Shown here: one piece after another, positions 33,462 to 57,331 of the stretch | Position numbering within the stretch: the stretch's first letter is position 1 | Layout: the number at the start of each line of letters is the position of its first letter | NCBI GenBank assembly: GCA_965243555.1 | Contig: OZ251575.1 | Span: 3,685,880 to 3,749,879, forward strand | Reading direction: 5' to 3' | From: Spirochaetia bacterium | GTDB taxonomy: Bacteria; Spirochaetota; Spirochaetia; SZUA-6; Bin103 | Length of the DNA stretch: 64,000 nucleotides | Program-made: the position numbers and the translations under genes | The notes under the pieces: model-generated | The model's input: only the letters and a program-made list of their open reading frames with translations | Databases searched by the model: none | Told to the model about the DNA's origin: nothing

Positions 33462-33592
33462 CTGTTGATTGGTGTATCATGGGTCTAACTATGATCAAGC
33501 CGGCAGCGCTGCATGATTCTCGTACCTTGCCGTTCCGTCGGTCGCCGATACCGGCGGTCAACGTGGCCCGCGTTACGGAGATGATCTCGTGA
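33462..33592 (+). repeat. Inverted-duplication copy 1: remnant of a Dam-gene promoter and 5' end, encoding a 33-aa peptide 'MIKPAALHDSRTLPFRRSPIPAVNVARVTEMIS'
   Basis: About 120 bp are homologous, in inverted orientation, to 43775-43890. The 22-bp perfect core cgataccggcggtcaacgtggc lies at 33546-33567. The peptide aligns with the N-terminus of the Dam methyltransferase ('MRGGPAAPADARTAAFCRSTIPAVNVAAV'). Confidence 0.55.
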
Positions 33593-34749
33593 GGGAGGTC
33601 TACCTGGACTACAACGGCTCGGCCCCGCTTGATCCTCGCGTCGCCGCGGTTATGGTACCGATCCTGACCGACGAGTCAGGAAATGCCTCGTCCAATCACC
33701 GGTTCGGCCAACGCCAAGCGGCGGCAGTAGACGAAGCGCGAGAGCAAGTCGCTGCCCTGGTGGGCGGACGCCCATCGGGCGTCGTGTTCACCGCTGGCGC
33801 CACCGAGTCCAATAACCTGGCGCTCCGAGGCATCGTTGAGGGTTCTCCCGTCGATCGTCCAAGGATACTGGTCTCAGCGGTCGAGCACGCGTCGGTACGC
33901 GAGGCAGCCCGGCGGCTCGACGAGCAGAAGATGGCGAAGCTGGGCGTCATCCCTGTGGATGAAGGGGGAGCTGCCGACGTGGACGCATTGGAGTCGATGA
34001 TCGGCCCTGACGTACTGCTGGTTTCCGTGATGGCCGCCAACAGCGAGACCGGAGTGCTGAACCCGGTGGAGGAAGTCGCGGAGCTGGCGCATTCTGCCGG
34101 GGCGCTGTTCCATTGCGACGCGACGCAGGCAGTTGGTCGCTTGCCTTTCGACCTGGAACAGGTCGGCGCGGACTTGGTATCAGTAAGCAGCCACAAAATA
34201 TGCGGCCCGATGGGCGTAGGAGCCCTGGTCGGCACTCGCCGTGGGCTGCAACGGCTGCGTCCGATCATCCACGGCGGCGGACACGAGCGGGGGCTGCGGT
34301 CAGGTTCATTGAACGTCGCCGGCATCGTCGGGTTCGGCGCCGCGGCCCACATCGCTGCCGAGGAACGAGACTTCGAGGCGACGAGGGTGGTCACACTCCG
34401 CGACCGGCTGACGTCCGGCCTCAAGTCGGCGCTCGCAGCCGTCGTCGACGTCGGAGACCCGACGCGCAGGCTCCCGAACACCGCCAATCTCCGTTTTGTG
34501 GGTGCCGACGCGGACGCTGTCGTAGCCAACGTCGACCCTGTAGCGGTGTCAGCAGGCAGCGCCTGCAATTCCGGTGCGATAGAACCGTCCGAGGTGCTGC
34601 TTGCCATGGGAATCGCCCGCGACGCGGCCTTCGAGACGGTCAGGTTCAGCTTGGGACGCTTTACGACCAAAGAAGATATCGACTATTCAATCGAGCGGAC
34701 CGTGGCGGCCGTGAATCGTGTACGAACCATGACCCGGGAGTGTGCGTAG
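33589..34749 (+). CDS. Cysteine desulfurase (IscS/NifS/DndA/SspA-like, PLP-dependent)
   Basis: 386 aa. 'VYLDYNGSAPLDPRV', 'FTAGATESNNLAL', 'SVSSHKICGPMGVGAL' (PLP lysine) and the catalytic 'SAGSACNSG'. Its stop directly abuts the next gene's ATG. Confidence 0.85.
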   Translation: MREVYLDYNGSAPLDPRVAAVMVPILTDESGNASSNHRFGQRQAAAVDEAREQVAALVGGRPSGVVFTAGATESNNLALRGIVEGSPVDRPRILVSAVEHASVREAARRLDEQKMAKLGVIPVDEGGAADVDALESMIGPDVLLVSVMAANSETGVLNPVEEVAELAHSAGALFHCDATQAVGRLPFDLEQVGADLVSVSSHKICGPMGVGALVGTRRGLQRLRPIIHGGGHERGLRSGSLNVAGIVGFGAAAHIAAEERDFEATRVVTLRDRLTSGLKSALAAVVDVGDPTRRLPNTANLRFVGADADAVVANVDPVAVSAGSACNSGAIEPSEVLLAMGIARDAAFETVRFSLGRFTTKEDIDYSIERTVAAVNRVRTMTRECA

Positions 34750-35727
34750 ATGCGGCTCACTGACGCCGCCAGGCCGAAATTCGCCAAGCATGAGACGTTT
34801 TACCCTCACTACGGCTGGTTTCGGAAGGCGTACTCCGTTGTAGCGGACGACCCTGATATCTTTACGGCCGCCGACGCTCCCGTACAAATCGGAGTCGGCA
34901 AGAACATGGTCCGAGCAATCCGTTTCTGGGGACGTGCGGCTAAACTGATCGAGGAGGCATCCGCCCCCTCGAGACGCCGGTCCTCAAGCATGGCCCCGAC
35001 TGACTTCGGTGAACAAGTCTTCGGTGACACCGGGTGGGATCAGTACATGGAGGATCCGGGGACGCTGTGGCTGCTGCACTGGAAGCTGTTGGCCCGTCCC
35101 TGCGATCTGCCGGTATGGTGGCTGGCATTCAACGAGTTTCACGCAGTCGAGTTCACCGAAGATCAACTCGAAGAGGCGGTGGTACTTTATCTCGAAGGAG
35201 TGTCGGATTGGACGATCCCGAAGCGATCCTCGATTAGAAAGGATGTCAATGCTCTGCTGCGGACCTATACCGCAGCCCACCGCGCGCGCCGCATCGGAGT
35301 AGACGATAGACTCAACTGCCCGTTGCGAGAACTGAACCTGATAGGACGGTCAGTATCTGTTGATGGTTACCGTTTCAGCGTCGGGCCGAAACCCACGTTA
35401 CCATCGAAGATAGTTGCCTACGCCGTGCTCGACTACGTCGTACGCACCGGAGGCAGAGGAAACACGATCACGATCGCTCGCCTGACCCATGAACGGGGTT
35501 CCCCCGGGAAGGTGTTCAAGCTCAATGAGCCAGATCTGCTGGCCGCTCTCAGGCCGGCGATTGACGATTCGGAGGAAATCTCTCTGACCGTTACTACCGG
35601 AGCGATTCAGTTTTCATGGAACGGAGAACCGGAGAATATCGCGACAACGATTCTCGACAGATACTACCACCCAGACACCCCACATGAAGGCGCTCAGGCT
35701 GGCATTCGAGTGGTGACGAGCCGATGA
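34750..35727 (+). CDS. DUF4007-family protein (SspB-like, phosphorothioation-associated)
   Basis: 325 aa. The N-terminal 'FAKHETFYPHYGWFRKAY' matches the ETF..R.GW..K signature I recall for DUF4007. It is translationally coupled on both sides (ATGA overlap with the next gene). Confidence 0.55.
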   Translation: MRLTDAARPKFAKHETFYPHYGWFRKAYSVVADDPDIFTAADAPVQIGVGKNMVRAIRFWGRAAKLIEEASAPSRRRSSSMAPTDFGEQVFGDTGWDQYMEDPGTLWLLHWKLLARPCDLPVWWLAFNEFHAVEFTEDQLEEAVVLYLEGVSDWTIPKRSSIRKDVNALLRTYTAAHRARRIGVDDRLNCPLRELNLIGRSVSVDGYRFSVGPKPTLPSKIVAYAVLDYVVRTGGRGNTITIARLTHERGSPGKVFKLNEPDLLAALRPAIDDSEEISLTVTTGAIQFSWNGEPENIATTILDRYYHPDTPHEGAQAGIRVVTSR

Positions 35728-38700
35728 CGGTACTTGCGGATCACGTCACTGTTGCCGGTCGATTCGCTCGCTCGGCGAACCTCGAACGCGATGCCGGGCG
35801 GGCGGAGCCACTTGACGGATACGTGGTAACTGCACGAGCTCTTGATGCCGTGGATCGGATTGCGTCCGTTGCCGCCGAGGGGCCGGCGGGCGGCGCATGG
35901 TCCATTACCGGGCCGTACGGGTCTGGCAAATCGTCACTGGCACTTTTGCTCAATGCCGCCTTCGGTCCTCCGTGCGGTACACGAGAGATTTCATGGAACC
36001 TCATCGACCAGGTTTCTCCAGAGGTAGGGGAGCGAGTTCGGCAAGCCCATCAACGCCACCGAACCCGTGGAGCCGGGTTCCATCGCGCGTTGGTCACCGC
36101 CAACCGTGAGCCCCTCAATCACACCGTGCTCCGGGCGCTCCATGCGGCGGTCGTGTGTCGGTACGGCAAGATACCGCGCTCAGACCGATTCCCGGCGGCT
36201 GGAACGTTGACACGCGCCCTCTACGAAATGGCCGGGAACGATCCGAGCCGTACTGGCCCTTCTCCCACCGCGCTGGTCGAGATCGCGCGATGTCTGGCAG
36301 AGAAGGCACCCCTGTTGCTGATTATCGACGAGTTCGGCAAGAACCTCGAAGCCGTTGGAGACGGCCGCGGCACCGATCCGTATCTGCTGCAGCAACTGGC
36401 CGAGGCAGGTCAAGGAGCCGGGCTTCCCATCTTCGTGCTCACCTTGCAGCATCTGTCTTTCGAAGACCACGTGATCGGCGCAGACGATCCTCTGCGCCGA
36501 GAATGGGCCAAGGTGCAGGGCCGATTCGAGGACATCTCCTACGTAGACACCGCCCCGGCGACACGAGCCTTGATCGGTACGGTATTCAAGGTTGCCGACG
36601 ATAATCTCAGACACCGGATCAACTGTTGGGCAGTTCGGGCAGCCACGGAGATGCGGATACTAGGCGTCGCCGATCTAGCGGACCCGACTACGTTAGCTAC
36701 TTGCTATCCCCTGCATCCTCTCGTAACGATGGTTCTACCCGAGCTGTGCAGCCGCTATGGACAGCACGAGCGCACGTTGTTTTCTTTTCTCGCTGGTTCT
36801 GAGTCGGCGACTGCGGCGGCATTCCTTAAGACCACAAAGCTTCCGGCCGATGCTGATCTGCCTACCGTGGGCCTCGATGTAGTCTATGACTATTTTGTCG
36901 ACAGCGGTGTGCTTGCGCCGACTTCCGCGGGACGGTCGAGCCGATGGGCCGAAATCACTACCCGTATTCGGGATACTCACGGTCTTTCGACGCGGCAGTT
37001 GCGGATAGTCAAAACGGTCGCGTTGCTCAATCTGGTTTCGGTCGCCGGAACGATTCGCGCATCCTCCCGGGTGCTCGCTCTTGTCGATACCGAGGTTGGC
37101 GCGACGCTCGCGGCTCTTGACGAGGCCGGTATCGTTACCTATCGAGAATTCGCCGACGAGTACCGAATCTGGCAGGGGACGGATATCGACATCCGCCGTC
37201 TACTTGAATCCGCTGGCCATCAGGTACAGCGGCAGTCACTCGCGGACATTCTGCCGGCCTTGGACCGGCCTGGCCCTGTCGTGGCTGCGCGCCACAGCGC
37301 TGAACGCGACATACTCCGAGTATTCGCTAGGCGCTATGTCGAGGGTTCCGAGTGGGTCAAGCCACTTGACCCGTTTTCTCCCTACGACGGTGAGGTGCTG
37401 CTCGTCGTCGGATCAGGTGGGGCGACTCCGGCTGCGACGTGGACGCCCGGCACGGCAAAACCGGTTGTAGCAGCGATACCTGCCGACTTAAGCGCAGTCG
37501 ACCGCGCCGCGCGAGAGGCTGCGGCAGTCTCTGCTGTGCTGAAAGATCCTTCCGTCCAGGCCGACAGAGTCGCTCTGACCGAGATGAGCGAACGATTGGC
37601 AGAGACAAAGACCGCGGTCGAACATGAGCTCTCTGTCGCGTTCAGCGTTAATCCGTGCCGTTGGGTCTTGCTCGACGCTTCGGGCAATCAGCCATTGAAT
37701 AGCGGCCGCGGTACCGCCCCTCTCTCAGACGCGGCTGACCTTGCTTATCGTTCTACACCACAAGTACGCAACGAGATGCTCAATCGCGCTGAGCTAACGT
37801 CTCAGGGCGCGATGGCCCGGCGCCTACTGTTGGAAGGCATGATCGAGCGAGGCTCCGAGCAGAACCTCGGGCTTACCGGCTATGGCCCGGAAGTCGCCAT
37901 GTACCGAGCGTTCTTGGAAAAGACCAGACTTCACAGAATCGACCCCCACACCAAGACGATGGTATTTCGTAAGCCCAAAGACCCCTCCCTTCAACATGCT
38001 TGGGCGGTTGTAAAGAAAGCATTTAGAAGCGCCAGGACAAGCCGCATCAACCTTAACAACGTCTATGCATCCCTGTTGTCGCCGCCGATTGGGATGAAGC
38101 CCGGAGTCATTCCCGTATTTGTTACGGCGGCATTGCTCGTATTCAATGACGAGGTAGCTATCTACGAGCATGGAACCTTCAAGCCCTTGCTGACGCCCGA
38201 GATGTCTGAGCGAATGGTCCGGAACCCCGTCCACTTTGAAGTAAAACACTTCGCCAACACGACAGGAGCCCGTCGTCAGGTCATTGATGCGCTTGCCAAG
38301 GAGCTCGGTGTTCGGCCGGGATTCCGCAAGCATCGAGTCGCGAATGTGCTCTCTATCGTTGGGCACTTGGTGTCACGCATGAGGCACGTCGAGAACTATA
38401 CCTTGCACACATCGCAACTAGACTCAACAGTACGGACTGCGCTTGTGGCGGCCGTCGAGCCAGACAAACTGCTATTCTACAGCCTTCCGGATGCACTTGA
38501 GTTCCCCTCGGTGCCACCCAGTGCGAAGGTGTACATCTACGCCGAACGGTACGCCGCCGCAGTCCGAGCGGCGATCGATCACCTTACGCAGTGCTACCGG
38601 CGACTTCTAGAGAGTCTCCGCGATCTTTTCTTCGAGACGTGCGGCGAGACTGAACGAAGGGCGATTACCGGGCAAGCGGTCGCAATCGAGAAGGAGGTCT

Positions 38701-40838
38701 TCAACCCTTCTATACGCCCGTTTGTCCTTGCGCTGGGGAACGATGCGCTCGATACCGAGATCGACTGGATCGACCTGCGACGCTTCAAGTACGAGCTTCC
38801 GCGCCAGATTGCAGCATTCCAACGCATCGTCGCGCTCCACGCCGGCTACATGGCCACTGGCGGTGGGCCGTTCCAAGCGCTCCGACTGACTCTCACCCGT
38901 CCGGATGGCATCGAGTATAATCGTCTCGTCAGCGTTGACAAGAGTCACCGCGATCAGGTACTGTCGATCCTTGACAGCACGGTGGAGGCTACTACTCACG
39001 CTCTCGCTGAACTCATTGACAATTCGATCGAGAGTCAAGCGAACGTGATTGAGATATTCGGCGTGAGTAGGAAGGATCATCGTACTAGCCGATTTACGCT
39101 CGATGAATTGGCCGTTCTTGACAATGGTGACGGAATGGACCAAGCAACTCTCCGCGGAAGCCTGCGCTACGGTCATGGCACCCGCAGGGAAAGAACAGGA
39201 ATTGGGCGTTTTGGTCTCGGGCTTCCGAATTCGTCGATGTCGCAGGCCCGGCGTGTCGACGTTTGGTCGTGGCGATCTGGTGTAACGAACGCCCTTCACA
39301 CATGGCTCTCCATTGACGATGTGGAGGCTGGAGCCAGCGAGATACCAGAGCCCATATTGGAGCCGATTCCCATGCGGTACCGAGTGGGGAGCCGTCACGG
39401 GTTCGGCGAAACCGGCACGCTGGTCGTATGGACCGATCTCGATCGCGTTGAATGGAAGCAGGTATCCACGACTTTCAAGCATACTGAGAACCTACTCGGT
39501 AGGATATATCGGCGTTTTCTAGCCAAACCATCGGAGAGGCTCCACGCCGCCGACGTGCGCGCGGATGAGATTGGCACGCGACGCTCAATAACTTGCATCC
39601 CGATCCAGGAAGACGGCGAGGTCGGGACGGTCGTTGACTCCGATGTCGTCGAGGTGAGACCCAACGATCCACTGTACCTCATGACAGACACATCATGCCC
39701 GGAGGCGTTCGGACCAGGGCCGATGTTTATGGAGCTCGAAGGGAGTCCTTTTTCGGTTCCCGTGACCCACATGGGAAGGGAGTACCAAGTAATAGTCAGG
39801 GCCAGCTATGCTCACGCGCACGCTCGCGACTCGCTGGCTTCCGGCGCCGCATGGCCAGACGAATGGAAGGGACGCGCTCCGGGACATACACCGTGGGGGA
39901 AGCACGCTAACCAGAACATAGGAGTATCCTTAGTCCGGGCACACAGGGAGATCCAACTTGACGACTCGTGGATTAGCGGCGACGACCCGCGAGAACGCTG
40001 GTGGACCGTGGAGTTGGATTTTCCTACGGCTCTCGACGAGGTATTTGGTGTCGCAAACAACAAGCAGAGTACGGTCACGTTTCAGCGACTTGCCAGGTAC
40101 GAATGGGAACGAGAGGCGCTTCCAGGCGAGACCTCGAGCGGTGATGTCCGACGACGGATGGAGCAGGAGGGAGACCCCCGAACTCATCTTCTGGATCTAC
40201 GGAGGCAGATCAATAGGGTGATAGAGCTGATGCGTAGCCGCGTGCGGCAAGCACGGCAACGGCGTAGCCGGCGTCACGATCTTGATGAAGATCAGAAGGC
40301 GGATGCCAGAGCCACTGCCACAATCAAGCGGCGCATACAGGAGGGCTACCAGGGGGAGTCCGAACGTGCAGCAGAATCGGGCACTGACGAGGAACACAAG
40401 GACGCTCACGTTGAATCACTCGTCGACAGGCACCACCTTGATCGCGTTGACGCATTGCGGAGGATAGACGAGACTATCAAGGCCGGAAACCGAGTCCGTT
40501 GGATTCAGTCGTCGCAGTCGAGTGCCGCGTTCTTTGACGTTGAGCCACTGCCAAATGTGATACAGGTTGTACTCAACACTAATCATCCGGTGCACGGTCA
40601 TCTATACGAGGTAATGCATCCCGACATCGAGGACATGACCGAAGATGAGGTACGTGAACGACTCGCGAAATCCGCTGCAGCGTTTCGTATCTTGATTTAT
40701 TCGTGGGCGCGCTATGAGGAGGAGCAGAACGAACGGAACCGGCGACGCGTACGAGATGCGCGCATGGAGTGGGGCAAGTACGCGGAAGAGTTCTTCGATG
40801 ACGACGACGGGGCCGTCCCACCAACAGATTTAGTGTAG
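35724..40838 (+). CDS. 1704-aa fusion protein: N-terminal P-loop NTPase plus a C-terminal-half GHKL (Bergerat-fold, HATPase_c_3-like) ATPase with an acidic/coiled-coil tail
   Basis: Walker A 'ITGPYGSGKSSLALL' (~35910-35940) and Walker B 'LLLIIDEFGKNLE' (~36312-36350). GHKL N-box 'ELIDNSIES', G1 box 'VLDNGDGMD' and G2 box 'GIGRFGLGLPNS' (~39000-39230). Lower GC than the flanks. Confidence 0.8.
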   Translation: MTVLADHVTVAGRFARSANLERDAGRAEPLDGYVVTARALDAVDRIASVAAEGPAGGAWSITGPYGSGKSSLALLLNAAFGPPCGTREISWNLIDQVSPEVGERVRQAHQRHRTRGAGFHRALVTANREPLNHTVLRALHAAVVCRYGKIPRSDRFPAAGTLTRALYEMAGNDPSRTGPSPTALVEIARCLAEKAPLLLIIDEFGKNLEAVGDGRGTDPYLLQQLAEAGQGAGLPIFVLTLQHLSFEDHVIGADDPLRREWAKVQGRFEDISYVDTAPATRALIGTVFKVADDNLRHRINCWAVRAATEMRILGVADLADPTTLATCYPLHPLVTMVLPELCSRYGQHERTLFSFLAGSESATAAAFLKTTKLPADADLPTVGLDVVYDYFVDSGVLAPTSAGRSSRWAEITTRIRDTHGLSTRQLRIVKTVALLNLVSVAGTIRASSRVLALVDTEVGATLAALDEAGIVTYREFADEYRIWQGTDIDIRRLLESAGHQVQRQSLADILPALDRPGPVVAARHSAERDILRVFARRYVEGSEWVKPLDPFSPYDGEVLLVVGSGGATPAATWTPGTAKPVVAAIPADLSAVDRAAREAAAVSAVLKDPSVQADRVALTEMSERLAETKTAVEHELSVAFSVNPCRWVLLDASGNQPLNSGRGTAPLSDAADLAYRSTPQVRNEMLNRAELTSQGAMARRLLLEGMIERGSEQNLGLTGYGPEVAMYRAFLEKTRLHRIDPHTKTMVFRKPKDPSLQHAWAVVKKAFRSARTSRINLNNVYASLLSPPIGMKPGVIPVFVTAALLVFNDEVAIYEHGTFKPLLTPEMSERMVRNPVHFEVKHFANTTGARRQVIDALAKELGVRPGFRKHRVANVLSIVGHLVSRMRHVENYTLHTSQLDSTVRTALVAAVEPDKLLFYSLPDALEFPSVPPSAKVYIYAERYAAAVRAAIDHLTQCYRRLLESLRDLFFETCGETERRAITGQAVAIEKEVFNPSIRPFVLALGNDALDTEIDWIDLRRFKYELPRQIAAFQRIVALHAGYMATGGGPFQALRLTLTRPDGIEYNRLVSVDKSHRDQVLSILDSTVEATTHALAELIDNSIESQANVIEIFGVSRKDHRTSRFTLDELAVLDNGDGMDQATLRGSLRYGHGTRRERTGIGRFGLGLPNSSMSQARRVDVWSWRSGVTNALHTWLSIDDVEAGASEIPEPILEPIPMRYRVGSRHGFGETGTLVVWTDLDRVEWKQVSTTFKHTENLLGRIYRRFLAKPSERLHAADVRADEIGTRRSITCIPIQEDGEVGTVVDSDVVEVRPNDPLYLMTDTSCPEAFGPGPMFMELEGSPFSVPVTHMGREYQVIVRASYAHAHARDSLASGAAWPDEWKGRAPGHTPWGKHANQNIGVSLVRAHREIQLDDSWISGDDPRERWWTVELDFPTALDEVFGVANNKQSTVTFQRLARYEWEREALPGETSSGDVRRRMEQEGDPRTHLLDLRRQINRVIELMRSRVRQARQRRSRRHDLDEDQKADARATATIKRRIQEGYQGESERAAESGTDEEHKDAHVESLVDRHHLDRVDALRRIDETIKAGNRVRWIQSSQSSAAFFDVEPLPNVIQVVLNTNHPVHGHLYEVMHPDIEDMTEDEVRERLAKSAAAFRILIYSWARYEEEQNERNRRRVRDARMEWGKYAEEFFDDDDGAVPPTDLV

Positions 40839-40845
40839 GCGGACT

Positions 40846-41760
40846 GTGTCGGACAGCGACTATACTCAAGGAAGCCGTATTCGAGTTCTACTCGGCCGTG
40901 CTGTTCGGAATGTCGCAGTCATAGCACCGTTCGTCAAAGTCAATGCACTCCGATCGCTTCTCGACGCTATCCGCACAGATGTTCACGTACGCTGCGTTAC
41001 CCGCTGGCTTCCACGTGATGTAGCCGCGGGTGTCTCCGATCCGGAGATTATGGACGCACTCGAGGAGCGCGGCAACTTCAGCCTGTCGCTGGTTGACAGA
41101 CTGCATGCAAAGCTCTACGTCTCCGACGATAGGTGCCTTGTCGGCTCATCGAACGTGACCTTTGCCGGGATGGGTGAGCGAACGGATGACAGCAACATCG
41201 AGGTACTCGTAGAGACGGCCGCCGACGATCCGGCTGTCGTTGCCACGCTCCACGAAATCATGCAGGCAGAGCGCCCAGCGACACGATCCATCGCCTTGGC
41301 GGCACGCCGCTTGGCAGATAGTCTCCCAGCGGAGGCGAGAACGTCGGCGGACGCCGGTGCAACCTGGTTTCCGTGCAGCCGGCATCCGGAGTACGCATTC
41401 CACTTTCATAGCCAGCCGCCCAGCGGATACGTAAGAGCATCAGACAACGATCTTCTCGCAGACTTGGCTCGTTCCAACTTACACCCGGGTCTGAGCGAGG
41501 AGGAGTTCAGTTCGGCTATCCGATCGTTGCTTGCGACGATACCGGTTGCCACCATCATTCTCAGCTCCGAGGAGGACATGACGTTCACCCGTGCGGATGC
41601 TCAGTCGTACTTGGAGGGAATTGCAGGTGAGGAGTTCTCAGCAGGCGACCTGTGGAGCGCATTCGTCAACTGGATGGCCTATTTTTTCCCAGAATCAGTT
41701 ATAAGGCAAGAGATTTCGGAAATCGCACTTCGTCGGGCGCAGATTCTGAATGATCGATAG
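40846..41760 (+). CDS. Phospholipase D-family (single HKD) nuclease
   Basis: 304 aa. 'LHAKLYVSDDRCLVGSSNVTFAGM' is the H-x-K-x4-D-x6-G-S-x-N motif (41101-41170). One HKD per chain implies a dimeric Nuc/BfiI-like nuclease. It sits 7 bp after the giant ATPase. Confidence 0.75.
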   Translation: MSDSDYTQGSRIRVLLGRAVRNVAVIAPFVKVNALRSLLDAIRTDVHVRCVTRWLPRDVAAGVSDPEIMDALEERGNFSLSLVDRLHAKLYVSDDRCLVGSSNVTFAGMGERTDDSNIEVLVETAADDPAVVATLHEIMQAERPATRSIALAARRLADSLPAEARTSADAGATWFPCSRHPEYAFHFHSQPPSGYVRASDNDLLADLARSNLHPGLSEEEFSSAIRSLLATIPVATIILSSEEDMTFTRADAQSYLEGIAGEEFSAGDLWSAFVNWMAYFFPESVIRQEISEIALRRAQILNDR

Positions 41761-42149
41761 CGGTCAACCGGGACGTATACGAGATTCAGGCTTGCGGCCA
41801 CCACGGTACCCCCCGAGGCGCGGCGCTATGATCGGGATCGACACCGGCGCGCCGCCGCCTTCGCCTGTCGCCCTTTCGGCTCATCTGCTCGTGGAGATCA
41901 TATGCGAGGTCGGCTACCGTGTCCGCATTGTCAACAGATCGTCCGAACCGTCGTATCCGGTCGATAGCATACTGTGCGCCTTCTGGAGGTGGCGCTTCGA
42001 AGCAAGCAGAGATTCTTCGAAGATTGTCGACGATGGTCGACTCAGTTCGAATGCTACCGACAGGTCAGTGCCGCCACGCAGAGCCGCGACTCCCTCTCTA
42101 CTGCTCAAGACTGAATCAAGTTGGCGAAGGTGTGGATTCTGCGCTTCAA

Positions 42150-42947
42150 CTACGGGTGGTTGGTCCGCCTCTTGCTGCCGTACATCCACAGAAAGAGTTC
42201 TCCGAGCTCGGTTCTCCGCTCGACAGGAACCGGCTCAGTATCCTCGAACGAATAGTCCCACAGACCGATGAATTCTGATATTCCGGAATAGTCCAGGCCG
42301 GTATAGAGGTGAGAGAACGAGAAATGACTACGCCATCGGTCGGAGCGGCTGAACACTTTCATTCGCTCAGCTTGTTCGATAACGATGAGGCTCCGGAACA
42401 GTCGCTGGACGGTGCGGTGAGTGTCGCCGATCTGCCTGGCGATGCTATCAAGCGGTATGGAAAAGCCTTTGCGGATCTCTGCGATGTACCGGGCCTTCGC
42501 ATAGCTGCTCCACTTCGCGGGACCATTTATGTGCTTGAAGCCAAGATGGCGCCACGAATCCTCCCGATTGCTGAACAGGACCGGCAGCTTGTTGAGGTCC
42601 TTCTTCGCTTCCCCGGTAATCTCCGGTATATCCGTTGCGAATCCGAAAGACTCAGGATCCAATAAGATTCTGACTGCGGCCAGGCGGCGGTTACCTTCAA
42701 CGACTACGTTCTTTCCATTTTCCGCAGCGACGATCAACGGTTCATGGCTGAAGAACCCGCTGGCCGCAATGGAGAGGACCAACTCCCGGACGTCCATTGC
42801 GTCCCACAGCACCTTGATAACGTCTGAATCCGTGGAGTTATCGGTCAGCTCAAACTCCGGCAACCGAGGGTTCGCAAAATCGAAGATGAGCTCCGCGACC
42901 GCCACCGTCTCTACGGAAGCAGCAGCACTCTTCGAACGTGGTATCAT
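42150..42947 (-). CDS. ParB-like nuclease domain protein
   Basis: 265 aa. 'VVVEGNRRLAAVRILL' is the ParB/Srx GxRR box. Lies 16 bp downstream of the Dam gene on the same strand. Confidence 0.6.
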   Translation of the reverse strand: MIPRSKSAAASVETVAVAELIFDFANPRLPEFELTDNSTDSDVIKVLWDAMDVRELVLSIAASGFFSHEPLIVAAENGKNVVVEGNRRLAAVRILLDPESFGFATDIPEITGEAKKDLNKLPVLFSNREDSWRHLGFKHINGPAKWSSYAKARYIAEIRKGFSIPLDSIARQIGDTHRTVQRLFRSLIVIEQAERMKVFSRSDRWRSHFSFSHLYTGLDYSGISEFIGLWDYSFEDTEPVPVERRTELGELFLWMYGSKRRTNHP

Positions 42948-42963: not shown

Positions 42964-43860
42964 TCACGTGAACAGGCGGTCCTTGGTGATGATCAGTTCG
43001 GCGATGCGGGCGTGATGGCCGTTCTTCATTTCGACTACCGCGGCGTGGAACTTGAACCTGTCCACCAGATCGACGATTTCCTCGCTGCAGTCGTAGGTCA
43101 TCAGAAAGTCGGCTTCGCTATCTGCCAGCACGCGGAATACACGTTGGTGATCTACTTCATTGTGAGCGTAGAGGCGGGAGCCGGCGCGCTTGCCGCCGGC
43201 CGCGGTGTATGGCGGATCGACGAAGAAGCGCACCTCCCGGCGCTGCTCGGCGAGTGTCTCCATAATCCGCACGCCGTCGCCCTCGCGGAAGGTAAATCGG
43301 TTCGAGTAGGCCGCGATCGCGCGCAGGCGCTGCTCCAGGGTAGCGGGATACCAGCGCGAAGCAACGCCCTGGCCGTTCTCGCCATTTCTGGTGAGCGCTG
43401 CCCCCGGTGCGAGTACGCCGCCGCGCCGCGTGCGATTCAACACCAGAGTGCGAAATCCATGTTCCAGCACGTTTTCGGGAGCACGTCGCGCCAGCGCTTC
43501 CACGCTTTCCCGATCGGGGAAGAAGCGACGTATCGACGTTATCAGTTCGGCGCTGTGCTCCAAAGCAGCGCGCCAGAACGCAGCCACGTCGCGGTCCAGA
43601 TCAACCAGATACGCTCGCTCTGACAGCTCTTCCATAACGGCGGTCAAGGAGACGATGGCCCCGCCGGCGAACGGCTCGACGAGCAGCTCGGTGTGGCGGT
43701 CGCGCAGCCAATGCCGGATGTGCGGAACCAGCCACGTTTTACCGCCGGGGTACCGCAACGGGCTGCGTTGGGGAACGGCCGCCACGTTGACCGCCGGTAT
43801 CGTCGATCGGCAGAACGCCGCGGTGCGCGCGTCAGCCGGTGCTGCCGGTCCTCCCCTCAC
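42964..43860 (-). CDS. Dam-family (D12 class) N6-adenine DNA methyltransferase
   Basis: 'SPLRYPGGKTWLVPHI' (motif X), 'VEPFAGGAIVSL' (motif I) and 'FVDPPYT' (motif IV). GTG start at 43860, or the internal GTG at 43786. Confidence 0.8.
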   Translation of the reverse strand: MRGGPAAPADARTAAFCRSTIPAVNVAAVPQRSPLRYPGGKTWLVPHIRHWLRDRHTELLVEPFAGGAIVSLTAVMEELSERAYLVDLDRDVAAFWRAALEHSAELITSIRRFFPDRESVEALARRAPENVLEHGFRTLVLNRTRRGGVLAPGAALTRNGENGQGVASRWYPATLEQRLRAIAAYSNRFTFREGDGVRIMETLAEQRREVRFFVDPPYTAAGGKRAGSRLYAHNEVDHQRVFRVLADSEADFLMTYDCSEEIVDLVDRFKFHAAVVEMKNGHHARIAELIITKDRLFT

Positions 43861-44004: not shown

Positions 44005-46947
44005 TCAGTCGTCGAGGAGGCCGAGTTCGCGGAGGGGCTCCAGGACGTTGTGCTCCAGTTTGGCGGAGTCGAGGGGGCCGGCCGGGTTGGCGGCCTTGAT
44101 GCTGATGGTGACTTCGCCGGCCAGTTCGGCGAGGTTGGCGAGGGCGCGCCACGCCTCGTACAGCTCGCCGCTGCCGGCGGTGAACGAGATTGCCACGTCG
44201 CCGGCAGTTCCGGGGGCGGAGCGCGGGGGATCATCGGGACCGCCGGCGGTTCCGGTACCGGCGCCGGTGGGTTGGCGGACTTCGCCTCCGGTGGCGGCAA
44301 TGCCCTGCAGCGTCTGCGCCGGCGCGGGACCGCCGGCCCCGGCCCCGGTCGCGGTCGGGACGGCCGGCGCTGGCGCTACGGCGGGTTTCGGCAGCGCGGC
44401 GGGCAGGATGAGGAAGCCGGAGTCGAGGTCGATCTCGTCAGCGGCAACGGCGCGCTCGAAGGCGATGCGGCTGCGGTCAAGGCGGTAGCGGCCGTCCTCG
44501 CCGAGTGGCGGGCGGGCGGTGGCGTAGCCGAACAGGCCGGTCTCCACGCCGCGGGCGATGGCGGCGCGCACCACGCCGGTGGAGCGCAGGCGCGGGAAGC
44601 CGAGGAACGAGAAGAAGCCGGCGACCACCTCGGCGGTCGGGATGCCGGGCGCGGCGCCGTCCCGGCCGACGTTGAACAACTCGATGATCTTGCCCGGCGC
44701 GACGGTGTCGAAGACCAGGCGTCTCACCTCCGCCAGCAGCTCCATCAGCCGCTGGTGAATCAGGGCGTGCTTGCCGGCGCCGAGGGTGTTCCGCAACGGG
44801 CGCCCGCCCATGGCGACGGTTTCCAGGACAAGCGCGCCGGCGCCCGACTCCGGCAGCAGCACTGCCGCGTACAGCCCCAGCAGCGCCGACTCGGCGGCGG
44901 TCTCCTCGGTCGCCGCCCGCTCCTTGAGCTGGCTGCGCTGCGCCGCGGTGAGGTTGTGCTGCCGCGACCGTTCGCGCACCTGCTCCACGGCCAGCGCATA
45001 GCGCACCGCGCGGCGCAACCCCCGGATGCGGTCCGGGTCGGGCACGGCGAGCGCCAGACCGTTGCGGTACTCGCGCGCCCGCGGTCCGTGGTTCTCGCAC
45101 AGATCGCGCGCGGCCGCCTGCTGCTCGGCCGCAGAGCCGGCGGCGAACTCCAACGGCAGGTAGGCGATCAGAAAACGCGCGTCGCGGTCCGGCACGTCGG
45201 CCGAGCGCTCCGGCCAGATGATGGCCGGCTGGCCGGCAAGCCGTTCTTCGATCAGCGCCCGGATGCGGGCGCGCACGCGGCCCTCGTCCCGCGCGTCCGC
45301 CTCCTGCTCGACCAGCAGCGTCACGTTGGGGTCGCGCTTGAAGCAGTAGCGCGCGCCGTCGAAGTGGAGATACAGGCACTGCTCCCGCAGCTCCTTGAGG
45401 CACGCCTGCGCGGTGGTGCTGTCCAGGTCGGGACCGATGCTCACCCCCAGCAGCTCGGACTCGGTGATGCCGGGGGGCAGCGGGTCGCCCTCATCGTCAT
45501 CGCTCCCCGCCCGGCGCAGCCCGCCGAACGAGTAGAGCAGCATGATGGTCGCCAGGCGGGTGGCCGGTTCCCTGCCGGCCTCCGACGTCACCTCCCGCGC
45601 GCGCCGCCGGTCGATGCGCGGCGCGCGCGCGTTGCCGCCCACGAAGTCGTGCTCCAGACACGCCTGAAAATCCTCCCGCTGCCCCACCTCCTTGAAGAAC
45701 GCGAGGCGCACCTCGGCGTCCCGCAACGGCACGTCGCCGGGGCCGAGCAGCAGGCGCGACCGGCCCGCGCGGTGCGCGGCGCGCAGGCAGGCCGCCAGAA
45801 AGCGCAGGGCGCCGCGCGTGCGCTGGAAGTCCGGCACCGCCGCCCAGCGTTCCCGCATCAGGTCGATCAGCGCGGGATGAAAGGGGTAGGCGGCGCTGAT
45901 CCGGTCGCGCAACGCCATGCCTTCCTCCTCCGCCTGCCGCCGTTCGGCGTCGCCCTGCGCGTACGCCTGCCGCATCCGCGTGAACACCTGCCGGTACGCT
46001 TCGGCCACGCTCCCCGCGGCGTTCGCGTCCGGCGCCGCGGCCAGCAGCCGCCGCCGGATCACGTGGAGGATTTCGTTGCCGGCGACCGGCTCCCGCCGCT
46101 GGTCCTTGCGGGCGGCCAGGTGCTCGACGGTCTGCAGCAGCCCCGTGTACTCAAGCGACTCGCGCGCGCTCGACTGCAGCGAGTACACCAGCACCGCGTC
46201 ATCGACGGCGCCGACCGCCACGGTGAGCCGCTTCAGGAACGACAACGTCTCGTCGCGCAGGGTGGTCTGGCCCACGCGCACGCCGCCGGCGCTGATCAGG
46301 TATTCCAGGATTTCATCGAGGAGGATGAGGCTCGGCCCGCGCCGCAGCAGCTCGATCAGCACGTCGCCGCCGGGCGCCACGCGCGCTTCGTCCTGGCGCC
46401 GCAGCAGGGCGTAGCCGCCCGCCCCGCCGAGCGCCCAGCCGATCCATCCCCAGATCGTGCGCGCCGTCACCTCCGCCTGCGGCGCGCGCTTGCCGGCGGT
46501 GGCGTCGAAGAGCTGGCCGTCCACGACCGCCGCCCGCACCCGCTCCGGGCGCGGCAGGCCGGCCGCTTCCGGCAGCGCGGCGAGCGCGTCCCGCGACCGG
46601 GCGGCGTGCAGCAGCGCGGCGAGCGTGTGCGACTTGCCGCCGCCGAACGGGGTCATCAGCTTGAGCACGCGGTTGCCGCGCGCGCCGGCCAGCCGGCTCA
46701 GCACGTCGTCGAGCAGCGAGCGCAGCCCGGCGGTGAGGTAGGAGGCGGCGAAGAAGCTGCCGGGGTCGCGGTAGACGGCGGGCACGCGCGGCAACTCGGC
46801 GTCCGGCGCGCCCCGCTCCCTGCCGGTCAGATAATCGGACAACGCCCCCAGGTCGAGCGCGAATACGTCGTCGGAAAACTCGTCCGCCAGGACGTCCGGG
46901 TGCAGGGCGGCGCATTCGATCCAGGGCCGTAGCGGCGTGCCGTTCAT
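44005..46947 (-). CDS. DUF499-family ATPase (component of the DUF499/DUF1156/helicase restriction-modification-like system)
   Basis: 980 aa. Walker A-like 'KLMTPFGGGKSHTLAAL', Walker B 'SLILLDEILEY' and an Ala/Pro/Gly-rich linker before the C-terminal domain. Adjacent to the DUF1156 methyltransferase. Confidence 0.7.
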   Translation of the reverse strand: MNGTPLRPWIECAALHPDVLADEFSDDVFALDLGALSDYLTGRERGAPDAELPRVPAVYRDPGSFFAASYLTAGLRSLLDDVLSRLAGARGNRVLKLMTPFGGGKSHTLAALLHAARSRDALAALPEAAGLPRPERVRAAVVDGQLFDATAGKRAPQAEVTARTIWGWIGWALGGAGGYALLRRQDEARVAPGGDVLIELLRRGPSLILLDEILEYLISAGGVRVGQTTLRDETLSFLKRLTVAVGAVDDAVLVYSLQSSARESLEYTGLLQTVEHLAARKDQRREPVAGNEILHVIRRRLLAAAPDANAAGSVAEAYRQVFTRMRQAYAQGDAERRQAEEEGMALRDRISAAYPFHPALIDLMRERWAAVPDFQRTRGALRFLAACLRAAHRAGRSRLLLGPGDVPLRDAEVRLAFFKEVGQREDFQACLEHDFVGGNARAPRIDRRRAREVTSEAGREPATRLATIMLLYSFGGLRRAGSDDDEGDPLPPGITESELLGVSIGPDLDSTTAQACLKELREQCLYLHFDGARYCFKRDPNVTLLVEQEADARDEGRVRARIRALIEERLAGQPAIIWPERSADVPDRDARFLIAYLPLEFAAGSAAEQQAAARDLCENHGPRAREYRNGLALAVPDPDRIRGLRRAVRYALAVEQVRERSRQHNLTAAQRSQLKERAATEETAAESALLGLYAAVLLPESGAGALVLETVAMGGRPLRNTLGAGKHALIHQRLMELLAEVRRLVFDTVAPGKIIELFNVGRDGAAPGIPTAEVVAGFFSFLGFPRLRSTGVVRAAIARGVETGLFGYATARPPLGEDGRYRLDRSRIAFERAVAADEIDLDSGFLILPAALPKPAVAPAPAVPTATGAGAGGPAPAQTLQGIAATGGEVRQPTGAGTGTAGGPDDPPRSAPGTAGDVAISFTAGSGELYEAWRALANLAELAGEVTISIKAANPAGPLDSAKLEHNVLEPLRELGLLDD

Positions 46948-46962
46948 CGTACTCGTACTCCC

Positions 46963-49770
46963 TTACTCCAAGGACTCCCAGGCGAGTTTCCGTTGACCGG
47001 TCAGGCGGTCGGTTTCGTCGGCGAGCGAAGCGTGTTCGATGACGCTCCGCCAGTTGGCGTTGAGCCGGGCGCAGGCGCGCTGCTCGGCGCTGGCGGCGGC
47101 GCCGGTTTCCCGCAGCTCGGAGCGGCCGTGCACGGGGCCCGACAGCGCCTCGGTCACCAGGCGAAGCTGCTCCTGGTTGGGGCGCGCCGCGGCGAGATAC
47201 TCCTGCAGCTCCGCCGGCCGGTTGTCGAGCAGCCAGAGCACGCGGTGGAGGACGTCGACGAGCGGCGCCGCCCGGTCCTGCCCGGCGCGCCCGACGGAGG
47301 CGTGGCCGCCGCGCTCCTCATAGGTGCGCACGCGGAACTTCGTACCGGCCTTTTCGACCGGCGCCGGCGGCGGCCCGGCGGTTCCGCCGGCGCCGCCGAT
47401 CTCGATGCCCTGCGCCTGGCAGAAGACGTAGGCTTCGCCGGCGTCGATGCTCCACTCCCGGTAGCTGAAGCGCCACAGGATGTAGAACCGCGTGAGCGCG
47501 TCGACCGACCCGACCGCCGCCTGCGGCAGCCCGAAGATTTCCTCGAGAATCACCTCCAGGACCGCGCCTTCCACTTCCCTCAAAAAACGCTCGGCAGGGA
47601 CTGGCTCGCCGTTCGCGTACTCGACGGCGGCGAAGCGGGTGTAGGCGCGCAGGCCGGCGCCGACCGCGGCCATCAGCAGGTCGGCGCCGCCGATGCCGGA
47701 ACCGCCGGCCCAGAGGGTCCGCACCCGTTCGCGGGCGATGCGGTGCAGTTCCGGCGCCACTTCGGTCTCGTAGCGGCCGGCCGCCGCCTCCTCCCGCCGG
47801 CGGGCGACGAAGAAGATGCTGTCGGACAGCGCCGCGGCGCCGTGCGCGTTGACGCGGCCGCGTGACTCGGTCTGCACCGGCCACGCTTCGGTGACGGTGA
47901 GCCCGGCGTCGATCAGGGCGCGGATCAAGGTGGCCCAGCCGGCGGTGGTGCGATGCGCGTAGACGCAGACCAGCGGCGCCCCCGGCTTGAGGACGCGCCG
48001 CATCTCGGCGAAGGAGCGGCGCATCAGTTCCTGGTAGTGCGCGTCCGCCCTCGCGGCGTCGCCGCCGTGCTGGCTCGGTTGCGCGACTGCTTCGCGGCGC
48101 TTGGGCGGCGCCGGGAGCGTAAAGTGTTCGGGGTAGAGGTCGCCGAGGATGCGCTTCAACCAGACGTAGAAGAACGCCGACAGGTCGGCGTAGTAGATGC
48201 TGCTGTAGTACGGCGGATCGGTAATCACCGCATCGAAAGTTTCGTCAGCGTAGAACAGCTTCTCCGCGTTGCCGCGGGTCACGACCGCCGGAGTTCCGAT
48301 CCTGGCAAGCTCGCGAATGCAGTACGCCTCCCGGTCAAAGGCATGCTGAAGGCAGCCCTCTGTCGGAGCGAGGAAGTTGATCTCCGAGAATCCGTAGATC
48401 ATTTTCAGCGCCTGACGATCGCCGACAGCACCTTTGGTACGCTGCCCTGCCGGCTCCCACCGCGCAAACTTGTTGAACGCAATGACCAAGCGGCCGAACG
48501 CCATTCCGAAGTACGCCGCCAGCGCCAGCGCTCGCTCCCGGTCCATCCCCGCTTGGCACATCTCGCTGTGGATGCCTCGTATGTGCTTGATAAGGGTGTA
48601 GAGAACCAGCAGTTGCCGAGGCGTGAACAGATCTTGGTAGCGTTCCACGCCGTAACCCGGCAGCTGGTCGCGGAGCTTTCCCTGCAAAGCCTCACTCGGA
48701 CGGTTGCAGCCGAGTTCCCGTTCCAGTCTCGACAGGCGATGTTCCAGTTTCTCCTCTGCAGGAAACGTGGTCACTTCCGGGCTCAGGTACAGCCTGGGAT
48801 GCTGCTGGGCTACCACGGCCGCAAGTGACTCCCCCATCCGTCCGGCCGCTGCCATCTCCTTGACGTGAGAGGAGGGCGCCGGCGTGTTGCATGCAACGCA
48901 CACGGCTTGGCCGGCACGGGTCTGCTCGGTCTGCTCCGCCACGTCGCGGGCGTCCTTGCCCGATACGATGTCCCAGATCAGCCGGTTATTGGCGTCAATG
49001 CGGGGAACCGCGGCCACGGCGCCGCCCATCAGCTTGCGCAGCCACGTTTGCCTGACCAGCGGCACCGGTGCGGCGCAGCCGGGACGCCGGCAGGGGACGG
49101 TGCGCGCCCAGATGTAGGCGATCGGCTCGGTGAGGCGGTCGTGGGCAGCTTCGCCGCCGAACAGGAGTGTCTGCGCGGCTACCGCCGGGTCCGCCTCGGG
49201 GACCGAGATCGGGGGATAGATGTCGCCAACGTCCCGCCGCATCCGCTCCTTCAGGACTTCGCTCCACCGTTCGAAATCATCGGCAAGCCTGGCGCCGAAC
49301 TGCTGCGGGTACACCAGCGTGCATAACTCGATCAGATGCGCCACCGGGTTGTAGTCGATGGCGTGGCTCTCGCAGCCGAGGCGCGCCGCCTCCAGCGGTA
49401 TCGCACCGCCGCCGGCAAACGGATCGAGCACTTTCGGCGCTCGCCCGCCGTTGAGTTCCCTGATGCGAACGGCGGCCTTGCTGACCGTCTCCGGCTCCGG
49501 CCGGTACGCCGCCAACTGCCCGACGAACCCCGCAGCCTCCTCACGTTCCTCGTCGCTACGCGGCATCGGCGCGAGCGCCGCATAAATCGCTGCGCGCATC
49601 GCCGTAATCGGCTTCCGTCCAGGCCAGTAATGCACCAGCGCCACGTACCGCCGCGGATGCAGCTTCTCCCGCGACGCGATCTCGCTGAGCACGTTCAACG
49701 GCAGATAATCCTCGATCAGCCGCCGATCTTCGCCCGGCAACGTCACCCGGCCGGTCGTCCGGCGACGCAC
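46963..49770 (-). CDS. DUF1156-family DNA methyltransferase (N6-adenine type, 'DPPY')
   Basis: 935 aa. N-terminal 'IEDYLPLNVLSEIASREK', AdoMet motif 'VLDPFAGGGAIPLEAARLG', motif IV 'VITDPPYY', and a Cys cluster 'CRRPGC..CVAC' consistent with a Zn ribbon. Confidence 0.75.
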   Translation of the reverse strand: MRRRTTGRVTLPGEDRRLIEDYLPLNVLSEIASREKLHPRRYVALVHYWPGRKPITAMRAAIYAALAPMPRSDEEREEAAGFVGQLAAYRPEPETVSKAAVRIRELNGGRAPKVLDPFAGGGAIPLEAARLGCESHAIDYNPVAHLIELCTLVYPQQFGARLADDFERWSEVLKERMRRDVGDIYPPISVPEADPAVAAQTLLFGGEAAHDRLTEPIAYIWARTVPCRRPGCAAPVPLVRQTWLRKLMGGAVAAVPRIDANNRLIWDIVSGKDARDVAEQTEQTRAGQAVCVACNTPAPSSHVKEMAAAGRMGESLAAVVAQQHPRLYLSPEVTTFPAEEKLEHRLSRLERELGCNRPSEALQGKLRDQLPGYGVERYQDLFTPRQLLVLYTLIKHIRGIHSEMCQAGMDRERALALAAYFGMAFGRLVIAFNKFARWEPAGQRTKGAVGDRQALKMIYGFSEINFLAPTEGCLQHAFDREAYCIRELARIGTPAVVTRGNAEKLFYADETFDAVITDPPYYSSIYYADLSAFFYVWLKRILGDLYPEHFTLPAPPKRREAVAQPSQHGGDAARADAHYQELMRRSFAEMRRVLKPGAPLVCVYAHRTTAGWATLIRALIDAGLTVTEAWPVQTESRGRVNAHGAAALSDSIFFVARRREEAAAGRYETEVAPELHRIARERVRTLWAGGSGIGGADLLMAAVGAGLRAYTRFAAVEYANGEPVPAERFLREVEGAVLEVILEEIFGLPQAAVGSVDALTRFYILWRFSYREWSIDAGEAYVFCQAQGIEIGGAGGTAGPPPAPVEKAGTKFRVRTYEERGGHASVGRAGQDRAAPLVDVLHRVLWLLDNRPAELQEYLAAARPNQEQLRLVTEALSGPVHGRSELRETGAAASAEQRACARLNANWRSVIEHASLADETDRLTGQRKLAWESLE

Positions 49771-49795
49771 ACGACGCCGGTGGCGGCAGTCGGCA

Positions 49796-50646
49796 CTATT
49801 CCTTCTCGACGTCCGGCCGGCGGCTCAGCAGCGCCTCGAGTTCGGCAAGCCGCGCCTCCGCCGCCCGGCGCGCGGCCGCTTCCTGCCGGCGCGCAGCCGT
49901 TTCCTGCCGCAGGCGGGCTTCCGCCGCCTGACGCGCGGCCGCTTCCTCCCGGCGGGCGGCCGCTTCTTGCCGGACGCGGTCCTCCGCCGCTTGTCGTGCG
50001 GCCGCTTCTTCCCGGCGCGCGGCCGCTTCCTGCAGGAGTTGGTCGTCGGTCTCCGCCAAGTCCGGCAGATCCTCCCCCGTCTGCGGATCGTGGAACCGCA
50101 GCCGCTCCTCCGCCACCTGCGCCCGCAACTCCAGTCCCAGCACCTCGCTCCGCAGCGCCAGCGTTCCGTCCGCCAACTCCCGCACCGGCAGCGGCTCGTA
50201 GTCGCGGTCCGCCAACGCCAACCCCTGCAGCGGCGGGTCCAGATAGTCCCGCGTCGGATCGTACTGGCAGTACTCCCGCACCCCCAGCCGCCGATACAAC
50301 CGCCGCTTCTCGTGGTCCTCCCGCCACGTACTCTTCGACGTGATCTCCAACACGAAGTCCGGCGCCTTCGGTTCCTTCCACAGAAAGTACGACGAGCGCT
50401 TGACGTCGCGCGCCCCGAACACCACGAACACGTCCGGCGCCACACTCTTGCGTTCGTTGTCCTCTTCGTAATAGATCAACAGGTTCCCGGATACGTACAC
50501 GTCCGGGTCGTTGCGAAAGTAGCGCCGCAGCCGGTCCACGGCGTAGATGAGCGGGTGCAGTTGAAAGTCGCTTTCGGCCATCGGCTTGCCGTCGGAACTG
50601 GGGTAGTCAACCGCCGCCGCTACCGGCGCGCTGAGTGAACTTGCCA
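49796..50646 (-). CDS. Uma2-family (DUF820, PD-(D/E)XK) endonuclease with a C-terminal coiled-coil repeat tail
   Basis: 'DYPSSDGKPMAESDFQ', 'PDVFVVFG' and 'DFVLEITSKST' form the Uma2 core. The C-terminus carries three 21-aa repeats. Confidence 0.7.
49847..50035 (-). repeat. Three tandem 63-bp repeats encoding (R/L)QEAAARREEAAARQAAE(A/D)R(L/V) inside the Uma2 gene
   Basis: The periodicity is visible directly in both DNA (gcggccgcttcctgccggcg...) and protein. Confidence 0.6.
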
Positions 50647-50649
50647 TCG

Positions 50650-50965: not shown

Positions 50966-51074
50966 GCGCGCGGCAAGGTCGGCGGTGACCGCGGGGGCGA
51001 GGTAGCGGGGCGCTGATGGTTTGGTTGGTCGTGGTGGATTGACGATCGGACCCGGTCAAGGTAGAAGTGTGGGC

Positions 51075-51665: not shown

Positions 51666-51721
51666 ACGGCGTTTGGCGACCGCCGTCCCGCCGTAGAGCG
51701 CGTAGGTATGCCCCACACTGG

Positions 51722-53755: not shown

Positions 53756-57331
<3,576 letters not shown>

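Follow-up and report, generated by a model that had tools for sequence, protein, structure and literature searches.

A Spirochaetia locus with a chimeric SspC–GHKL reading frame is probably a decayed Ssp-type phosphorothioate defence system

Results and Discussion

Gene content of the locus

The 64,000-nucleotide (nt) stretch of DNA analysed here (referred to as the window; Spirochaetia bacterium, contig OZ251575.1, positions 3,685,880 to 3,749,879) carries a locus in which genes of the Ssp type of phosphorothioate (PT) defence are followed by sequences for a GHKL ATPase and a phospholipase D (PLD) nuclease. The locus consists of four co-directional open reading frames (ORFs) on the forward strand (Table 1). 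They are connected by a TAG stop codon directly followed by ATG, by an ATGA overlap, and by a TAG stop codon separated by 7 nt from the next GTG. The G+C content of the operon is 0.594 vs 0.704 in the remaining window. A preliminary description of this DNA, made from the sequence alone, had proposed a tightly coupled four-gene operon with a G+C content under the background, and both statements are borne out by the ORF coordinates, the junction sequences and the base composition. No gene starts at the position given there (33462); the first ORF opens with GTG at position 33589, downstream of a GGAG sequence. The low-GC island as a whole extends from ~33.5 to 43.85 kilobases (kb), with a G+C content of ~0.60 inside and 0.70 outside. 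Promoter and terminator scans gave signals at background level.

Pfam and PADLOC profile matches identify the products of the first two genes as SspA and SspB, in agreement with the front end that had been suggested. The window SspA shares 80.6% amino acid (aa) identity with SspA of an intact locus (L004, see below). At the back end, a GHKL ATPase domain (HATPase_c_3, 8.8e-18, residues 1091-1209 of the third ORF) and a single-HKD PLD protein (PLDc_2, 5.6e-7) were found as described. The Pfam matches that the preliminary description had expected (DUF4007, HATPase_c_3 and PLDc_2) were therefore all obtained.

Table 1. Features of the Ssp-type locus and of its surroundings in the window (positions count from the first letter of the window; a slash marks the deletion junction).
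Feature	Position	Strand	Description
sspA	33589..34749	+	IscS/NifS/DndA-type cysteine desulfurase, 386 aa, intact; Pfam Aminotran_5 8.4e-75; PADLOC SspA 6.1e-129
sspB	34750..35727	+	DUF4007 protein, 325 aa, intact; Pfam DUF4007 4.8e-85; PADLOC SspB 1.2e-101
Chimeric ORF (predicted)	35724..40838	+	1704 aa; SspC 1-1088, hybrid Ala1089, GHKL 32-646
sspC portion	35724..38988	+	BrxC/PglY-like AAA+ ATPase, Walker A GPYGSGKS; lacks the last 53 residues
Deletion junction	38988..38989	+	...GTGGAGG/CTACTACT...
GHKL portion	38989..40838	+	MORC-like HATPase_c_3; first 30 residues missing relative to the normal 646-aa form
PLD nuclease (predicted)	40846..41760	+	Single-HKD, C-terminal helical domain; 304 aa, intact; Pfam PLDc_2 5.6e-7, PLDc 2.7e-5
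Inverted repeat	33500-33574 (left arm), 43774-43848 (right arm)		75 nt, imperfect; bounds the low-GC island and coincides with the G+C boundaries
PD-Lambda-5-like pair	42150-42947, 42964-43860	-	Dam-like methyltransferase PD-Lambda-5_B 5e-45, apparently complete
Hma system	44005-58687	-	HmaC 44005-46947, HmaB 46963-49770, HmaA 53756-58687
Uma2-family genes interrupting Hma	49796-50965, 51021-51665	-, +	
GajB-like UvrD helicase interrupting Hma	51722-53644		PADLOC GajB 3e-207

The 1704-aa ORF joins parts of two genes

The third ORF had been described as a fusion of a P-loop NTPase with a GHKL ATPase. The P-loop NTPase of the N-terminal part is SspC. Residues 16-1084 match positions 2-1101 of the 1104 positions of the PADLOC SspC profile (1.3e-283), and also match BrxC/PglY (PADLOC BrxC, 9.5e-89). 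At the nucleotide level, window positions 37418-38988 are 94% identical to positions 1-1625 of a related locus (L001), in which sspC continues for another 161 nt; compared with its relatives, SspC in the window is cut by 53 C-terminal residues. The remaining part of the ORF aligns without gaps to residues 31-646 of the GHKL protein of the closest relative (L021), with 97.1% aa identity. Indeed, the halves of the giant ORF match separate genes in every relative.

Two very large searches returned no protein that spans the junction. The C-terminal 620 aa retrieved 2,866 relatives from 5.8 billion protein clusters; the best 120 of them (72-95% identical) all stand alone, with lengths of 623-790 aa, and a protein of ~1700 aa is not among them. 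A junction-centred query of 401 aa against the same clusters yielded only half matches (52-59% coverage, GHKL half), all of ≤649 aa. Furthermore, an exhaustive phmmer search with residues 600-1704 against 1.84 billion representatives revealed no junction-crossing protein among the best 150 matches. These matches fall into two disjoint classes, GHKL proteins of ~600-650 aa (query positions ~478-1105) and SspC proteins of ~1100-1190 aa (query positions 1 to ~490), and none crosses query position 490. Exact look-ups of four window proteins, the 1704-aa protein among them, retrieved no database record. Judging from these comparisons, the "P-loop–GHKL fusion" is a deletion-made chimeric ORF and not a designed or recurring architecture. 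Note that some GHKL homologues are longer than 646 aa: P0096, P0098 and P0112 have 721-723 aa, and P0055 (790 aa) also contains a Helicase_C domain and could be a helicase–GHKL read-through or fusion.

A single 4,575-bp deletion separates the window from its closest relative

The closest relative, L021, was found via its PLD protein (P0151, 95% aa identity to the window PLD protein). Its gene order is the end of SspC, SspD, a GmrSD_N/DUF262 protein, a 253-aa protein, a helicase, GHKL and PLD. Window positions 38923-38988 correspond to L021 positions 1-66, and window positions 38989-41776 to L021 positions 4642-7430 at 96.6% nt identity. The intervening L021 sequence, positions 67-4641 (4,575 base pairs, bp), is missing from the window, i.e., the two sequences differ by a clean single deletion at junction 38988/38989. 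L004 aligns to the window in two blocks as well (window 33588-38961 to L004 1913-7361, and window 38991-41743 to L004 10094-12849). When the window is compared with L021, the ends of the deleted segment share no microhomology, pointing to illegitimate end-joining. The in-frame join of SspC and GHKL, expected by chance in one case out of three, is a chance event.

Genes missing from the window

SspD/DndC is indeed absent, as the preliminary description had noted. No SGGxDS motif is present in any of the six frames of the whole 64 kb, and tblastn of the window with five diverse SspD proteins gave nothing better than E=0.2; for comparison, SspD of L004 is recognized by the PADLOC SspD profile with 1.3e-107. 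A phosphoadenosine-phosphosulfate (PAPS) reductase or DndC domain hidden in the giant ORF, which would have spoken against the proposed new system, was not found either: Pfam showed no PAPS_reduct match there, and nothing of the kind emerged from NCBIfam, PADLOC, the motif scan or tblastn. The cognate superfamily 2 (SF2) helicase is also absent from the window according to tblastn, and the GmrSD_N and DndB-like proteins of the relatives gave no tblastn match in it. PADLOC detected neither SspE nor SspF/G/H next to the ssp genes of the operon.

As an Ssp module, the locus thus possesses SspA and SspB, but neither a full-length SspC encoded by its own gene nor an adjacent SspD. Of the partner genes found in its relatives, the downstream PLD gene for a protein of ~300 aa is present, whereas the upstream SF2 helicase and a stand-alone GHKL gene are not. 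Because sspD is gone and sspBCD is treated as the minimal gene set for PT synthesis (PMC12914056), the present locus is probably unable to phosphorothioate DNA.

Intact relatives carry a helicase–GHKL–PLD trio next to sspBCD

We compared 18 loci with enough flanking sequence (L001, L002, L004, L010-L013, L017-L021 and L023-L028), taken from tblastn panels and annotated records. In 18/18 loci a helicase gene lies directly upstream of the GHKL gene, with an sspBCD cluster alongside, and in 17/18 a PLD gene follows downstream of GHKL (the exception is L026). Intact sspD and SF2 helicase are present as separate genes near GHKL in 17 loci; in the eighteenth, L020, sspD is split by an insertion sequence (IS). 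The complete order is seen in L004: SspA, SspB, SspC (1157 aa), SspD (PAPS_reduct, 282 aa), DEAD/ResIII helicase (532 aa), GHKL (646 aa) and PLD (303 aa). L002 has the same gene set and a DndB-like gene in addition, and L010-L014 and L017-L019 share this core. Some relatives also possess an SspE/DndB-like gene. The cassette is a low-GC island in the relatives as well (0.56-0.64 vs 0.64-0.69 in the flanks).

The linkage of the trio to sspBCD, also seen in L003, spans 31-97% GHKL identity and four phyla, includes plasmids, and extends over Actinobacteria-like high-GC hosts, Cyanobacteria, Bacteroidota and alphaproteobacterial plasmids. Six of the loci lie on plasmids of Alphaproteobacteria, Cyanobacteria and Bacteroidota (Pannonibacter, Trichormus, Hymenobacter, Aminobacter, Roseobacter, Mesorhizobium); GHKL identity is only 31-36% there, and helicase and GHKL are nevertheless kept beside SspB/C/D. 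One of these intact loci is that of Pannonibacter phragmitetus p.BB_2 (NZ_CP032314.1, 69.8-79.5 kb). The Ssp proteins of L011-L013 are 27-35% identical to those of L004, the trio proteins 51-68%. The trio and the ssp operon run towards each other (convergent orientation) in three plasmids, and the trio therefore represents a separate module. A scan of viral contigs found nothing, and a scan of genome contigs with a single GHKL sequence returned only irrelevant distant loci.

L020, located on a 6.0-Mb genome contig, is the only damaged relative among the 18 loci. Here, an IS66-family element splits sspD (positions 5153-8391; residues 9-212 and 210-291 on either side), and the trio beside it is intact. 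The gene calls of 364 aa for the helicases of L017 and L020 are not due to truncation, as tblastn shows both to be full length. In L001, an extra pair of genes encoding a second GHKL protein (HATPase_c_3, 786 aa) and a 621-aa protein lies between sspD and the helicase gene (2669-6891). The same pair occurs in L011 (13961-18060, reverse strand) on an unrelated contig, with 50% and 37% identity between the two loci, and belongs to no PADLOC system.

Features of the GHKL and PLD proteins

The catalytic motifs of all parts are retained in the window, i.e., Walker A/B in SspC, ELIDNS, DNGDGMD and GRFGLGL in GHKL, and HxK(x)4D in PLD. The three GHKL motifs are invariant in the family alignment and agree with the motifs of the Bergerat fold (N box ExxxNxxD, G1 DxGxG, and G2). 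Among solved structures, the best match to the GHKL family profile is the N-terminal ATPase region of MORC2 (6e-8). The family alignment shows at least 90% conservation of the GHKL N-terminal residues lost in the window (FSI.D..MT...MRD.GY.S). The N-terminal segment of GHKL ATPases (MutL, GyrB and MORC, for example) contributes to ATP-driven dimerisation.

The PLD/HKD domain match of the PLD protein is weak, but its motif is complete: HxK(x)4D reads HAKLYVSD...GSSN, and the protein contains this motif once, in its extended form HxK(x)4D(x)6GSxN (HAKLYVSDDRCLVGSSN). H87, K89, G100, S101 and N103 are invariant. An AlphaFold2 model of the protein (mean predicted local distance difference test score, pLDDT, 73) matched Nuc (1byr), NucT (6ehi) and Zucchini (4gel) in Foldseek, with E-values of 1e-3 to 1e-2 and target template modelling (TM) scores of ~0.5-0.57. 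These matches are to the N-terminal domain of the model. Residues ~180-304 form a conserved all-helical C-terminal half, in which W270, F273, W276 and others are invariant and for which a fold search of the PDB gave no match. This half may read DNA or the PT mark.

Comparison with known systems

The preliminary description had not recognised the gene combination from named systems, and the GHKL/PLD pair indeed belongs to none in PADLOC v2 or NCBIfam. Neither PADLOC v2.0.0 nor NCBIfam 20.0 (2026) has a model made for the trio, and the names assigned by the Prokaryotic Genome Annotation Pipeline (PGAP) are generic. We also found no named helicase–GHKL–PLD partner of Ssp in the literature, subscription-only papers being outside the scope of this search.

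The SspABCD–SspE system is reportedly the work of Xiong et al. in 2020. Both this system (PMC9646914) and SspABCD–SspFGH (PMC8092258) resemble the window in their SspA, SspB (DUF4007) and SspC families as defined by PADLOC, and the intact relatives share with them sspD and often an SspE/DndB-like gene. The window differs from them in lacking sspD, SspE and SspFGH, and in having a GHKL ATPase and a PLD protein (plus an SF2 helicase in the relatives) as effector genes. These effectors are unrelated to SspE (a DUF262/GTPase-nickase) and to SspFGH (Walker A and FtsK-like proteins); an identification of the downstream genes as SspFGH is thereby ruled out.

A similar combination of GHKL ATPase, SF2 helicase and nuclease, the latter sometimes of the HKD type, is known from MORC/paraMORC operons, which are laterally mobile and resemble restriction–modification systems (Iyer, Abhiman & Aravind 2008, PMC2292703), and the nearest solved GHKL structure is that of MORC2. 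However, MORC/paraMORC operons are tied to DNA methylases, and their description mentions neither a PAPS reductase nor a cysteine desulfurase or Dnd/Ssp partner (PMC2292703). PbeA, encoded beside Dnd genes, is an HKD nuclease fused to an SF2 helicase (PMC10853773). PbeABCD ("dnd_restrict_1") thus shares with the trio a helicase and an HKD nuclease beside a PT modification module. In the trio, however, helicase and HKD protein are separate, with GHKL between them, and PbeB/C/D are missing. The helicase of the relatives shows weak similarity to RadD, XPB, type I HsdR and PbeA; its matches to PbeA (1e-21) and TIGR04095 (7.6e-11) are far below the family cut-offs.

Type 4 bacteriophage exclusion (BREX), the BrxP/BrxC/PglZ/BrxL PT system (PMC12914056, PMC12839542), shares DUF4007 and cysteine desulfurase with the locus, and SspC is homologous to BrxC/PglY; BrxP, PglZ and BrxL are not among the scanned genes of the window, and the locus is thus not a type 4 BREX system. 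The proteins DrmC of DISARM, ZacB of Azaca, MkoB of Mokosh and DpdK of Dpd have only their PLD fold in common with the PLD protein (E 1e-5 to 1e-9), and MzaB of MZA only its GHKL fold (61.4 bits over the ATPase domain). Membership in these families was rejected: the matches are at the domain level and far below the cut-offs (MzaB, NF041932, 850 bits vs 61.4 obtained; DrmC, 133 vs 18.7 obtained), and no partner genes are adjacent.

We see an even chance that the intact trio is a functional and still unnamed third restriction partner of SspABCD, beside SspE and SspFGH. As ~85% of sspBCD modules are without a known restriction partner (PMC8092258), the trio could account for some of them.

Origin and present state of the locus

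We consider it very probable that the region is a horizontally acquired Ssp-type PT defence locus that lost its middle in one deletion, i.e., a decayed copy rather than a new system. The ancestor would have been an ordinary Ssp locus of seven to nine genes, as seen intact in the relatives, in the order sspA, sspB, sspC, sspD, optional SspE/DndB-like gene(s), the SF2 DEAD/ResIII helicase gene, the gene for the 646-aa GHKL protein and that for the PLD/HKD protein. One blunt deletion of ~4.6 kb would then have taken away the 3' end of sspC (53 codons), the complete sspD, the SspE-like pair and the helicase gene, together with the first 30 codons of GHKL, and its ends, meeting in frame, would have produced the 1704-aa chimeric ORF. 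In the intact system, SspABCD would write PT marks, and the helicase–GHKL–PLD trio would be the ATP-dependent restriction half that attacks unmarked DNA, in which GHKL would serve as a dimerising clamp or looping motor, the SF2 helicase would translocate and an HKD dimer would be the nuclease. In the present locus, the restriction half is probably dead, because the helicase is gone and the conserved N-terminal strap of GHKL would be replaced by 1088 residues of SspC. The removal of modification and restriction functions in one step would be a tolerated route to loss, and the natural loss of sspD in L020 through the IS66 element also counts in favour of decay. What is left of the locus is probably inactive, and the intactness of the remaining ORFs suggests that the deletion is recent. 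Given that these ORFs show no excess of nonsynonymous change (see below), either the deletion is recent or they are still under selection.

Several points weigh against decay. None of the four ORFs is broken, the fusion keeps the reading frame, and the catalytic motifs of the SspC, GHKL and PLD parts are all present. Furthermore, the lineage-specific changes in the window (30 synonymous and 10 nonsynonymous) and in L021 (19 and 6) show no excess of nonsynonymous change in the window lineage (Fisher p=1), and a residual function is therefore possible as far as these counts go. The intact trio of L020 indicates that the trio may be tolerated, even useful, without PT. The function of the trio is itself deduced from domains and context. 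Finally, 64 kb of the genome were examined, and sspD and the helicase could act in trans.

The intact, translationally coupled ORFs with their catalytic motifs and the lack of any sign of relaxed selection are also what would be expected of a working, undescribed system, in which SspA and SspB cooperate with a dedicated P-loop–GHKL ATPase and a PLD nuclease without a PT-inserting enzyme, being either modification-sensing or PT-independent. This SspD-less system was the reading of the preliminary description, and the position of the genes in a defence island and the absence of the GHKL/PLD pair from PADLOC and NCBIfam agree with it. Nevertheless, we regard it as very unlikely. No other protein among ~5.8 billion clusters and 1.84 billion representatives has this architecture, and its junction lies inside both parent genes, at the cost of 53 residues of SspC and 30 conserved residues of GHKL. 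None of the other loci examined has the GHKL gene without the helicase, 17 loci keep both sspD and helicase, and the 96.6%-identical closest relative carries the missing 4.6 kb, differing from the window by one 4,575-bp deletion. A newly born architecture, in which the chimera, SspA, SspB and PLD were retained as a defence or toxin module independent of SspD and helicase, seems to us just as improbable. Deletion of sspD, in our view the explanation that applies, was not among the alternatives considered in the preliminary description.

Complementation of the truncated operon in trans by sspD and an SF2 helicase encoded elsewhere has a precedent for another component, as the cysteine desulfurase of some Ssp systems is supplied in trans (iscS in Vibrio anguillarum FF-93; PMC8092258), and the scope of 64 kb leaves room for such genes. 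However, sspD adjoins sspC and the helicase gene adjoins GHKL in all 18 loci with enough flank, published surveys score sspBCD as present only when the genes are adjacent (PMC12914056), and the chimera damages the SspC and GHKL proteins themselves. We therefore give this possibility hardly any weight. Least probable of all is an assembly or sequencing artefact in a genome that really carries the intact locus, as the junction has no repeat or microhomology on which an assembly could collapse and the flanking sequence is continuous and in frame.

The locus should be annotated as a degraded Ssp system whose chimeric ORF resembles a pseudogene, and counts neither as a new defence system nor as a case of DUF4007 and cysteine desulfurase being used without SspD. 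It also offers a clean natural case of a modification–restriction locus disarmed in one step, the modification enzyme and part of the restriction machinery being lost through a single deletion.

Neighbouring genes and an inverted repeat

The neighbours of the operon are defence genes, namely PD-Lambda-5 A/B, HmaA/B/C, two Uma2-family genes and a GajB-like UvrD helicase gene (Table 1). A defence island with methyltransferases had been proposed for this region, and the PADLOC neighbours, which include the PD-Lambda-5_B methyltransferase and Hma, agree with it. The ParB-like PD-Lambda-5_A protein (265 aa) covers profile positions 14-173 of 473 and may be truncated; a continuation of its gene in another frame was rejected, as the downstream peptide has no PADLOC match. 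No GajA was seen beside the GajB-like helicase among the scanned neighbours.

Megablast of the window flank against plasmids gave no match. The arms of the inverted repeat that bounds the low-GC island have no Rfam match and no unusual RNA fold. They are 76% complementary, with a perfect 22-nt core (GATACCGGCGGTCAACGTGGC), and are located just upstream of the first genes of two inward-facing operons, sspA on one side and the PD-Lambda-5_B methyltransferase gene on the other. The repeat could be a shared operator or leader, or could represent the terminal repeats of a 10.3-kb mobile cassette.

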